Of a stretch of 24,000 nucleotides of DNA, positions 14,116 to 15,828 are shown piece by piece. The notes under the pieces are model-generated. The model had not been told where the DNA came from. It was given only the letters and a program-made list of their open reading frames with translations, and made no database searches. This DNA is from Lachnospiraceae bacterium (lineage in GTDB: Bacteria; Bacillota; Clostridia; Lachnospirales; Lachnospiraceae): the NCBI GenBank assembly GCA_031548165.1, contig JAVBRI010000008.1, positions 41,084 to 65,083 on the forward strand. Direction: 5' to 3'. How positions within the stretch are numbered: position 1 is the stretch's first letter; every line of letters begins with the position of its first letter. A program made the translations under genes and the position numbers.

Positions 14116-14451
14116 ATGCAAGATGAATACAAAGAACAAGCAAAAGTATTTAAAGCCTGTTGTGATGAAACAAGAATTATGGTTTTATCACTTTTGCAAA
14201 GTGGTGAGAAGTGTGCCTGTGTACTTCTTGAAAAAGTGAATGTAGGTCAGCCAACACTTTCACATCATATGAAGATTCTTGTTGATAGTGGTGTTGTTTC
14301 AGCGCGTAAACAAGGTAAGTGGACGTATTATTCAATTGATGAAAGTGGAAGTGAGAAAGCAAAAGAATTACTTAATTTATTAACTACCGTAAAAAAAGAT
14401 TCGGCTAGTTCCGAACTTTGTGAAAGTGAGGAGGGGTGTTGTAATGAGTAA
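14116..14451 (+). CDS. arsR: ArsR/SmtB-family metalloregulator, thiolate-rich (7 Cys)
   Basis: Winged-helix core DETRIMVLSLLQSGEKCACVLLEKVNVGQPTLSHHMKILVDSGVV...KWTYYSI with a CxC in helix 3, an N-terminal vicinal CC (KACCDE) and a C-terminal C-x5-CC. Confidence 0.85.
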   Translation: MQDEYKEQAKVFKACCDETRIMVLSLLQSGEKCACVLLEKVNVGQPTLSHHMKILVDSGVVSARKQGKWTYYSIDESGSEKAKELLNLLTTVKKDSASSELCESEEGCCNE

Positions 14452-15520
14452 AAAATGCTGTTGTTGCTGTTCTTCGTCAGAAGAGCCTATTACAAAATAC
14501 GATCTTGCTGAACATTGGATAAAGGGAGAGATTGAAACAGCTAAAGGAAAAGTTCCTGTTATATCTACAAAGCTTACATTTAAAGATAAATTAGGTGCAT
14601 TTAAGGTGCGTTTTAATATAGGTCGAATGAATTATCAAATAAATCCTGGTCTTTATGCAATTGGAAGCCCAGACAGTAATTCACCAGTATTAGTTAGTGC
14701 AAACTATAAATTAACATTTGACATTGTACGAAAAGAACTAGATGGTCTTAACTGTTGGCTAATGATATTAGATACAAAAGGGATTAATGTTTGGTGTGCA
14801 GCAGGAAAAGGTACGTTTGGAACAGATGAAATTATAAATAGAATTAATAAAACTAAGCTATCAGAAATAGTATCACATAAAAGGCTGATATTGCCACAAC
14901 TGGGAGCACCGGGTGTGAGCGCACATGAAATTATAAGACAAACTGGTTTTTCAGTTACATACGGTCCGGTTCGTGCCAGTGATATTAAAGAGTTTTTAAG
15001 AGCCGAATGTAAGGCAACTGATGAAATGAGAGAAGTTAAATTTACTATGAGAGATAGAATGGTGCTGACTCCAGTTGAATTTATTGCAGCAGCAAAAGTA
15101 GCATTATTTGTTTTAGGAATTGTGTTTATCTTAAATCTGTTTGTAGTAAGAACATTCGGAGCAGCTGATTTACTTGCATTTATTGCCGCAATGGTCACTG
15201 GAACTATTATAACACCAATTTTGTTACCGTTTATTCCTGGTAAGGCATTTGCTTTTAAAGGCTGGTTACTTGGTTTGATTATGACTACGTGTATTGTGTG
15301 GTTGAATGGTTGGTTTACAGTAAACTCGGTATTGCTTGTAATTGGTTATTTGCTTGCATTACCGTCTTACTCTGCATTTTTAGCAATGAATTTTACGGGT
15401 TCATCAACTTATACATCTTTTTCAGGTGTGTTAAAAGAAATGAAACTATCAATACCACCGATAATTATTTCAATAACTGTCGGATGTATAATACTCTTAG
15501 TAAAGGCTTTAATTGGATAG
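14444..15520 (+). CDS. hgcA: HgcA, mercury-methylation corrinoid protein (corrinoid-binding domain plus about 5 TM helices)
   Basis: The diagnostic cap-helix motif NVWCAAGKG lies at 14786..14812 (Cys codon 14795..14797). Flanks PVLVSANYKLTFD, LILPQLGAPGVSAHE and GPVRASDI match recalled HgcA. By eye the C-terminal half has five hydrophobic helices. The ATG at 14444 has GGAGG 9 nt upstream and overlaps the arsR stop by 8 nt. Confidence 0.85.
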   Translation: MSKKCCCCCSSSEEPITKYDLAEHWIKGEIETAKGKVPVISTKLTFKDKLGAFKVRFNIGRMNYQINPGLYAIGSPDSNSPVLVSANYKLTFDIVRKELDGLNCWLMILDTKGINVWCAAGKGTFGTDEIINRINKTKLSEIVSHKRLILPQLGAPGVSAHEIIRQTGFSVTYGPVRASDIKEFLRAECKATDEMREVKFTMRDRMVLTPVEFIAAAKVALFVLGIVFILNLFVVRTFGAADLLAFIAAMVTGTIITPILLPFIPGKAFAFKGWLLGLIMTTCIVWLNGWFTVNSVLLVIGYLLALPSYSAFLAMNFTGSSTYTSFSGVLKEMKLSIPPIIISITVGCIILLVKALIG

Positions 15521-15534
15521 TATTGGAGGTTTAA

Positions 15535-15828
15535 ATGAAACATAAATATTTAAAAGAGGTTGCTACACTTGAATTATTAACTGATAAATGTATTGGATGT
15601 GGCAGATGTAAAGAAGTTTGTCCACATGCTGTTTTAACAGTTGAAAAAAACAAAGCACAGATAATTGATAAAAATGCTTGTATGGAATGTGGTGCATGTA
15701 TGAAAAACTGCCCTACACAGGCTATTAGTGTTAATGCAGGGGTTGGCTGTGTATCAGCTGTAATTCGTGGTTGGCTTACAAATAGTGAACCAAGCTGCGA
15801 TTGTTCTGGTGGTAGTGATTGTTGTTAG
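15535..15828 (+). CDS. hgcB: HgcB, mercury-methylation 2x[4Fe-4S] ferredoxin
   Basis: Two CX2CX2CX3CP motifs (CIGCGRCKEVCP, CMECGACMKNCP), the conserved Cys in GVGC, and a C-terminal vicinal CC (15820..15825). GGAGG RBS, 14 nt after the hgcA stop. Confidence 0.85.
   Translation: MKHKYLKEVATLELLTDKCIGCGRCKEVCPHAVLTVEKNKAQIIDKNACMECGACMKNCPTQAISVNAGVGCVSAVIRGWLTNSEPSCDCSGGSDCC

Follow-up and report, generated by a model that had tools for sequence, protein, structure and literature searches.

hgcA and hgcB within a five-gene operon

The window analyzed in this study, a stretch of 24,000 nucleotides of contig JAVBRI010000008.1, contains a complete hgcA-hgcB mercury-methylation pair, which is embedded in a series of five genes on the forward strand (coordinates are those of the window and refer to this strand unless marked otherwise). 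These genes are arsR, hgcA, hgcB, a gene for a protein of the C_GCAxxG_C_C family and a Cys-rich open reading frame (ORF) of 63 amino acids (aa). They are separated by -8, 14, 19, and 1 nucleotides (nt), respectively, with a Shine-Dalgarno sequence in front of every gene. The ATG of arsR is preceded, at a distance of 37 nt, by a sigma-70 promoter (TTGACA-17-TATAAT, 14051..14079) agreeing with the consensus at 12 of 12 positions. At the other end, a hairpin with A-run and T-run flanks (16479..16507; dG = -13.6 kcal/mol, z = -4.2, with 0 of 200 shuffled sequences folding as well) separates the operon from a convergent ORF (16511..17530) as a bidirectional intrinsic terminator. Screening of the 24-kb window with Rfam at gathering thresholds and with ARAGORN yielded no riboswitch, sRNA or tRNA. 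The initial annotation of this DNA, made from the sequence alone, mentioned neither arsR nor the N-terminal Cys run of HgcA nor the operon structure.

The hgcA gene (14444..15520) starts with ATG and encodes a protein of 358 aa, which matches the equivalog hidden Markov model (HMM) NF040863 of NCBIfam with 472.3 bits (cut-off 275, E = 7e-142, model positions 1-324 of 325 aligned). The protein encoded by hgcB (15535..15828; 97 aa), a 2x[4Fe-4S] ferredoxin, matches NF040864 with 129.7 bits (cut-off 99, E = 3e-38, model positions 1-93 of 93). Given these E-values on equivalog models, the identification of the pair is not due to chance. The positions that the initial annotation had given for two intact and adjacent genes were reproduced exactly from the ORF list and the sequence, and the HMM comparison it had proposed placed both proteins above the trusted cut-offs. 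A GTG at 14420 was also considered as start of hgcA and rejected, as it is located inside arsR and the N-termini of the homologs read MS(E/N/K)K...CC.

The cap-helix motif NVWCAAGKG with its intact Cys, noticed already in the initial annotation, is indeed encoded at 14786..14812. It is part of GINVWCAAGKGTFGT (HgcA residues 113-127), with NVWCAAGK corresponding to residues 115-122 and the codon of Cys118, the predicted cobalt ligand, to 14795..14797. Among 44 homologs there is no variation at N115, W117, C118, A119, A120, G121, and K122, and V116 is conserved in at least 90%. NVWCAAGK is one of the six high-stringency HgcA motifs of the community protocol (PMC10087281), and all features that this protocol asks for at high stringency are found here, namely the cap-helix motif, C(M/I)ECGA, which is present as CMECGA in HgcB, and an hgcB on the same contig as hgcA. 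The C-terminal part of HgcA (residues about 202-357, 15047..15514) is a membrane domain. A Kyte-Doolittle scan gave five peaks (residues 217-235, 243-261, 269-287, 296-314, and 340-358), and an AlphaFold2 model contains five long helices within residues 202-357, which bears out the roughly five hydrophobic helices noted before. The model was calculated from an alignment of 44 sequences, which was shallow because all usable homologs are at least 64% identical. As its confidence was low (mean pLDDT 58, corrinoid domain below 50), the helix count alone was taken from it.

In HgcB, the two CX2CX2CX3CP motifs of the initial description correspond to CIGCGRCKEVCP (residues 19-30, 15589..15624) and CMECGACMKNCP (residues 49-60, 15679..15714). 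Cys72 (15748..15750), a conserved Cys approximately 12 residues past the second cluster motif, is the equivalent of Cys73 of Pseudodesulfovibrio mercurii (Desulfovibrio desulfuricans) ND132, and further cysteines are Cys88, Cys90, and the terminal Cys96-Cys97 (15820..15825), the last two being the terminal CC that had been reported as well.

The only Pfam match of HgcA is PF03599 (CdhD/CFeSP domain, 63.7 bits), and the only solved relatives retrieved in a search of the PDB were CFeSP (corrinoid iron-sulfur protein) large subunits, with 4djd_C aligning to residues 65-188 (E = 1e-10) and no HgcA structure found. HgcA residues 63-188, including the cap-helix region, are homologous to the C-terminal corrinoid-binding domain of this subunit (AcsC/CdhE; 4DJD, 2H9A, 4C1N). 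The PF03599 domain common to both proteins, together with the many generic ferredoxin models that match HgcB, might imply a non-methylating paralog, that is, a CFeSP-like corrinoid protein next to a conventional ferredoxin, or a pair akin to the fused HgcAB-like proteins, for which no mercury methylation was observed in culture (e.g., in Pyrococcus furiosus). The HMM scores refute this explanation, since HgcA reaches 472 bits on its own equivalog, but only 94 bits on the acetyl-CoA synthase gamma model (cut-off 306) and 220.9 bits on NF043039, the fused and non-methylating HgcAB_like family (cut-off 285). Moreover, CFeSP, a member of the Wood-Ljungdahl pathway, lacks a membrane domain as well as, according to the literature, a Cys at the corresponding position of the cap helix, whereas HgcA of the window has both. 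Its genes are adjacent but separate ORFs 14 nt apart, and HgcB carries the specific Cys72 and terminal CC. We consider the chance that the pair is such a paralog to be negligible. The HMM scores, the high-stringency motifs and the indicative position within the Bacillota HgcA clade described below, not with fused paralogs, all support the original designation as complete, non-fused, true hgcAB, and with it that of the host as a putative methylmercury producer.

The hgcA and hgcB genes of strain ND132 are the founding and biochemically characterized pair. The genes of the window resemble them in the two-gene architecture, the class of cap-helix motif with its Co-ligand Cys and the five-helix membrane domain of HgcA, in the two CX2CX2CX3CP motifs, the Cys 12 residues past the second of these and the C-terminal CC of HgcB, and in the ArsR-family gene directly upstream of hgcA. 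Desulfovibrio is represented by a single HgcA in the retrieved set of loci; it stems from a metagenome-assembled genome (MAG; L055) and not from ND132, and is approximately 48% identical. A difference concerns the N-terminus, as HgcA of ND132 was reported with a Cys-Sec motif (PCUGP), whereas the protein encoded in the window reads CCCCC.

This run is encoded by five successive Cys codons (14456..14470; HgcA residues 5-9) within the N-terminus MSKKCCCCCSSS and represents an all-Cys form of the N-terminal CU/CC motif. Runs of CC or CCC are found at the N-terminus of nearly all of the 120 best homologs. Within a set of 83 loci, 49 are of the N-terminal CC type, and ten contain an in-frame Cys-TGA at the same position; the longest N-terminal Cys run in this set comprises five residues, a length also reached by HgcA of the window. 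The ten Cys-TGA loci, all of them distant (L054, L058-L060, L066, L067, L069, L071, L077, L080), agree with the published claim that many HgcA proteins are selenoproteins. According to Haft and Gwadz (2022; bioRxiv 10.1101/2022.07.06.499078), selenoproteins carrying a Cys-Sec motif at the N-terminus make up the majority of HgcA, and Cys-only versions are "packed" with additional cysteines. Since Cys-Sec and Cys-rich N-termini were described in that study, the feature as such was already known.

The two genes following hgcB encode small proteins. The first (15848..16282, 144 aa) is a putative redox protein of the C_GCAxxG_C_C family (PF09719 116.5 bits; TIGR01909 87.4 bits, cut-off 47.4), and the second, the Cys-rich ORF that closes the operon (16284..16475), gave a weak match to DUF6485 (E = 8e-4, below the gathering score). 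In a tblastn comparison of 80 loci, the closest relative (L001, 1975..2555) was the only one in which the two genes recur together behind hgcB, and its 63-aa ORF is 80% identical. A C_GCAxxG_C_C gene also adjoins hgcAB in two distant loci (L051, 9517..9906; L060, 6874..7314).

The ArsR regulator and its candidate operator

The first gene of the operon, arsR (14116..14451), encodes an ArsR/SmtB metalloregulator of 111 aa and overlaps the hgcA ATG by 8 nt. The protein matches NF033788 (82.6 bits, cut-off 55) as well as PF01022. Its cysteines are arranged as Cys33-x-Cys35 in helix alpha3 and as a C-terminal cluster of Cys102, Cys108, and Cys109. The CxC is invariant in all 31 hgcA-linked homologs compared, of which 22-23 share the C-terminal CC. 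Among ArsR/SmtB structures the top match was Lmo1102 of Listeria (9t6t), with the CxC aligning to its ELCVC metal site, and CadC (1u2w) was matched as well. As in CadC, the R773 ArsR, and ArsR2 of ND132, the protein is a predicted winged-helix repressor with an alpha3 CxC that aligns to ELCVC, and it probably regulates its own gene by way of inverted repeats that cover the arsR promoter. Unlike these three, it would draw additional ligands from a C-terminal CC tail and control hgcAB rather than an efflux pump. In ArsR2 of ND132, the cysteines in question are Cys47/49/86/88, in contrast to the CxC and C-terminal CC found here.

Two inverted repeats of 9-6-9 layout overlap or adjoin the promoter elements. 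The candidate operator O1 (ATATATTGA-CAAAAA-TCAATATAA, 14046..14069) overlaps the -35 box and the spacer, and O2 (TCATATCGA-AAATAA-TCAATATGA, 14083..14106), a strong repeat and the core of a longer palindrome (14075..14114, z = -8.2), lies downstream of the -10 box and ahead of the Shine-Dalgarno sequence of arsR. Both were compared in an alignment of the upstream regions of 23 Bacillota arsR-hgcAB loci (alignment A2; L001-L026, window 14036..14118) reaching down to approximately 59% HgcA identity. The full upstream consensus of this alignment is TTCATATTGACAnTTTTCGATnTGAnGCATATAATAnTCATATCGAAnTTTATAGATTTGAGGTG, and that of O1 is TCATATTGAcannTTTTCGATnTGA. With regard to the promoter, no locus deviates from the TTGA of the -35 box, the C and A that complete this box are conserved in at least 90%, and the -10 box is largely conserved. 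The half-site TC(G/A)AT(A/T)TGA occurs 44 times in the 2,880 nt upstream of arsR and 16 times in the remaining 403 kb of the same loci, corresponding to an enrichment of approximately 385-fold. From this conservation and position we infer that the two repeats are a candidate ArsR operator, through which ArsR would repress its own promoter and hence hgcAB. No description of such an arsR-hgcAB operator was found in the literature searched. An RNA hairpin at 14075..14114 that would hide the arsR Shine-Dalgarno sequence was considered as well and judged less likely than a DNA operator, because its left arm reaches into the -10 box, so that most of this arm would not be transcribed, and because the unit kept across the loci is the 9-6-9 repeat and not a long stem.

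The association of arsR with hgcAB has been reported before (Goni-Urriza 2020; Gionfriddo 2022/23), and 14 of 31 confirmed methylators were found to have arsR upstream of hgcA (Zhang 2023). In the 80 loci compared by tblastn, arsR lies immediately upstream of hgcA in most of those that share 55% HgcA identity or more, frequently with an overlap into the start of hgcA, and almost never in the more distant ones (Aminicenantes, Syntrophales, and other non-Bacillota). As judged from this gene order, the conserved core is arsR-hgcA-hgcB. A further-reaching reading would take these three genes as a self-contained, repressor-gated module, with promoter and dual operator kept across Bacillota to approximately 59% HgcA identity, with methylmercury formation inducible by a thiophilic metal or metalloid instead of constitutive, and with a carrier from the Lachnospiraceae. 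In this full extent the proposal is tentative, and we regard it as rather doubtful that all of its parts apply together.

Proposed function of the operon

Taken together, the evidence makes it very likely that the window contains a genuine and intact arsR-hgcA-hgcB operon, extended by two small Cys-rich genes, of a low-GC Clostridium, probably one of the Lachnospiraceae, and that this operon functions and is repressed by ArsR in the following way. The identity of the genes, their motifs, the anatomy of the operon and the operator's conservation were observed directly, whereas catalysis, the inducer and the formation of methylmercury by this organism are predictions. By homology to ND132, HgcA would bind a corrinoid with the thiolate of Cys118 on the cobalt and would be held in the membrane by its five helices. 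HgcB, as a two-cluster ferredoxin, is expected to reduce Co(II) to Co(I), after which the reduced cofactor would become methylated. For purified HgcAB of ND132, S-adenosylmethionine and not methyltetrahydrofolate was identified as methyl donor, and the Co-thiolate bond was seen (PMC11588087). The methyl group would subsequently pass to thiol-held Hg(II), probably bound by the C-terminal Cys pair of HgcB together with Cys72 and possibly by the CCCCC tail of HgcA. The flexible C-terminal Cys pair of HgcB and the equivalent of Cys73 are thought to handle substrate and product, and mutagenesis of C93, C73, and C94/95 is summarized in the same work (PMC7305189). Transcription presumably starts from the consensus sigma-70 promoter, ArsR most likely represses it via the two inverted repeats overlapping the promoter and the 5' leader, and a thiophilic metal or metalloid bound at the CxC and C-terminal Cys site would relieve this repression.

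Several observations weigh against this assignment. The synthesis or import of corrinoid by the host lies beyond the view of the 24-kb window, the corrinoid-binding domain of the AlphaFold2 model is of low confidence, the nearest HgcA relatives come without exception from uncultured MAGs or raw assemblies, and the copy of O1 in the window is degenerate. In addition, hgcAB of ND132 is under control of an ArsR that responds to arsenic, but this inducer cannot be transferred to the regulator described here because the Cys arrangement of the two proteins differs.

One might also ask whether the cassette, although intact, is silent or non-functional in its host, be it by tight repression, a missing corrinoid supply or too little activity. 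The levels of HgcAB are extremely low even in model strains (PMC11588087), the repressor sites overlap the promoter and no corrinoid genes are visible in the window, all of which would fit such a situation. Nevertheless, the five ORFs are intact, have good ribosome-binding sites and show a host-like GC content at third codon positions (GC3, 0.16-0.22), which argues for long-term maintenance under selection and renders a silent cassette improbable.

A stronger competitor is the possibility that the genes are true hgcAB with a native role other than mercury methylation, such as the reductive dehalogenation of halomethanes or other corrinoid chemistry under metal or metalloid stress, with methylmercury as an incidental product. 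A 2026 preprint reports that HgcAB dechlorinates CCl4 when expressed heterologously and that model methylators grow on this compound. The regulator belongs to the ArsR-type soft-metal sensors and not to MerR, arsenic is what the ND132 regulator responds to, and the cassette is common in habitats without obvious mercury, including termite-gut MAGs. However, the window contains no ars genes, no dehalogenases and nothing else that would point to halomethane or arsenic metabolism. Besides, such a role concerns the purpose and not the identity of the genes and does not contradict their capacity to methylate mercury. We consider it clearly less likely than not.

In favor of methylation, every hgcAB-positive organism tested by 2015 methylated mercury, and canonical hgcAB is on this ground a working predictor of methylmercury production (PMC4646819). 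Fermentative and syntrophic Firmicutes, among them termite-gut Clostridia, have been known to carry hgcAB since 2013-2015 (PMC4646819), and primers targeted at sulfate reducers miss fermentative methylators among the Clostridia (PMC5038027). With at least 8000 database proteins matching HgcA at E <= 1e-20, the pair is a real but ordinary addition to a well-known and very large family, to which the window adds one putative methylator among fermentative, polysaccharide-degrading Clostridia. The more useful by-product of the analysis is the conserved promoter/operator region upstream of arsR, which provides a concrete DNA target for finding out what switches on hgcAB in Bacillota. This operator and the possible Lachnospiraceae host each add some modest interest beyond the known family.

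Relatives, host and surrounding genes

The exact HgcA protein was found on one NCBI contig (94,435 bp) and in the Logan assembly of SRR23967709. Its closest relatives stem from a MAG labeled Oscillospiraceae bacterium (82% identity), a Ruminiclostridium MAG (79%), and Logan/ENA contigs (74-78%), and the best match among GTDB species representatives is 82% identical. In a neighbor-joining tree of 83 HgcA from GTDB genomes, which is indicative only as it is midpoint-rooted and contains neither outgroup nor support values, the protein forms a small clade with its nearest MAG and Logan relatives, nested in a Bacillota HgcA group that also holds Dethiobacter, Syntrophomonas, Peptococcaceae, and Desulfosporosinus. 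Termite-gut MAGs of Treponema, Coriobacteriia, Dehalococcoidia, and a methanogen (L020, L023, L025, L028) fall into the same group, which suggests transfer across phyla within gut communities. Such a mixed-phylum clade is in line with horizontal transfer as reported by Podar et al. (PMC4646819). With respect to host and gene type, the pair is similar to the low-GC hgcAB known from Clostridia MAGs and from non-sulfate-reducing Firmicutes (e.g., Clostridium termitidis, Acetonema longum, and Ethanoligenens harbinense), fermentative or syntrophic Bacillota whose HgcA form a divergent clade shaped by horizontal transfer, with some members tied to invertebrate guts. It differs from other Firmicutes hgcAB in that its own subclade (L001, L015, L082, L084, and Logan contigs; 74-82%) is without a cultured member among the retrieved sequences and in that the host markers point to Lachnospiraceae.

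Relatives with 74% HgcA identity contain the same three-gene core in unrelated surroundings (L082/L083, 4823..7546; L084), and arsR, hgcA, and hgcB appear to move as a unit. In one of these relatives the core is arranged back-to-back with a csoR-copA-copZ copper cluster, and in another it is located beside lgt and an amidase gene. A tblastn search with HgcA against 72,556 plasmids yielded no match, and there is consequently no sign of plasmid carriage. The GC3 of the cassette equals the background of the other window genes and thus gives no sign of recent acquisition, so that a recent transfer of the cassette was rejected.

The very low GC content stated in the initial annotation amounts to 32% for the window, and the Clostridia-type host proposed there is likewise supported. 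Many Lachnospiraceae proteins share 84-85% identity with GpmI (21797..23335), and among named organisms the best match to the GH78 rhamnosidase of the initial annotation, which was confirmed and is located at 9206..12820, comes from Dorea acetigenes (54%). Based on these two genes the host is a Clostridium, probably of the Lachnospiraceae, and it is plausible that it is fermentative and not a sulfate or iron reducer. If this assignment were wrong, either because the contig is chimeric or because the flanks were transferred, hgcAB might belong to an organism of the Oscillospiraceae/Ruminiclostridium type, the labels carried by the nearest named HgcA. It is also true that two genes alone carry the host assignment. 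On the other hand, a separate Logan assembly (SRR23967709, which probably used the same reads) has arsR-hgcAB linked with the same downstream genes on a contig of 7.3 kb, the window is uniform in GC3, gpmI is located 6 kb from hgcB on one contig of 94 kb, and family labels of NCBI MAGs are coarse. A wrong host is for these reasons unlikely. Lachnospiraceae is a family typical of vertebrate guts. Surveys up to 2015 did not find hgcAB in vertebrate gut microbiomes. The habitat of the organism would be of interest if it truly belonged to this family. In the literature searched, Lachnospiraceae are mentioned together with hgcA in only two papers, both times in passing.

No mer genes are present in the 24-kb window. 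A MerR-family regulator of 315 aa (1772..2719, reverse strand) gave weak matches below cut-off to the CadR, CueR, and MerR models and is not a mercury-resistance MerR. An aminoglycoside nucleotidyltransferase-like protein (6447..7268) matches ANT(9) with 94 bits, far under the cut-off of 340, and is probably not a true resistance gene product. The stretch directly in front of the arsR promoter (12910..13945) contains genes for a beta-class carbonic anhydrase-like protein and for a small regulator of the XRE/Cro type, which are found next to hgcAB in none of the related loci. Three ORFs on the reverse strand are without family match (4101..5279, 392 aa; 7438..8019, 193 aa; 16511..17530, 339 aa). 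The last of these, which occurs on the Logan contig L081 as well and converges on the terminator of the operon, gave a faint match to DUF3788 only. The surface adhesin listed among the neighbors in the initial annotation corresponds to a protein of 1317 aa (17711..21664) that has a signal peptide and a C-terminal membrane anchor as well as an InlB B-repeat and a YDG domain. Its C-terminus, consisting of VETGD, a hydrophobic helix, and KKKKK, resembles a sortase sorting signal, and its GC3 of 0.32 clearly exceeds the values of all other window genes.

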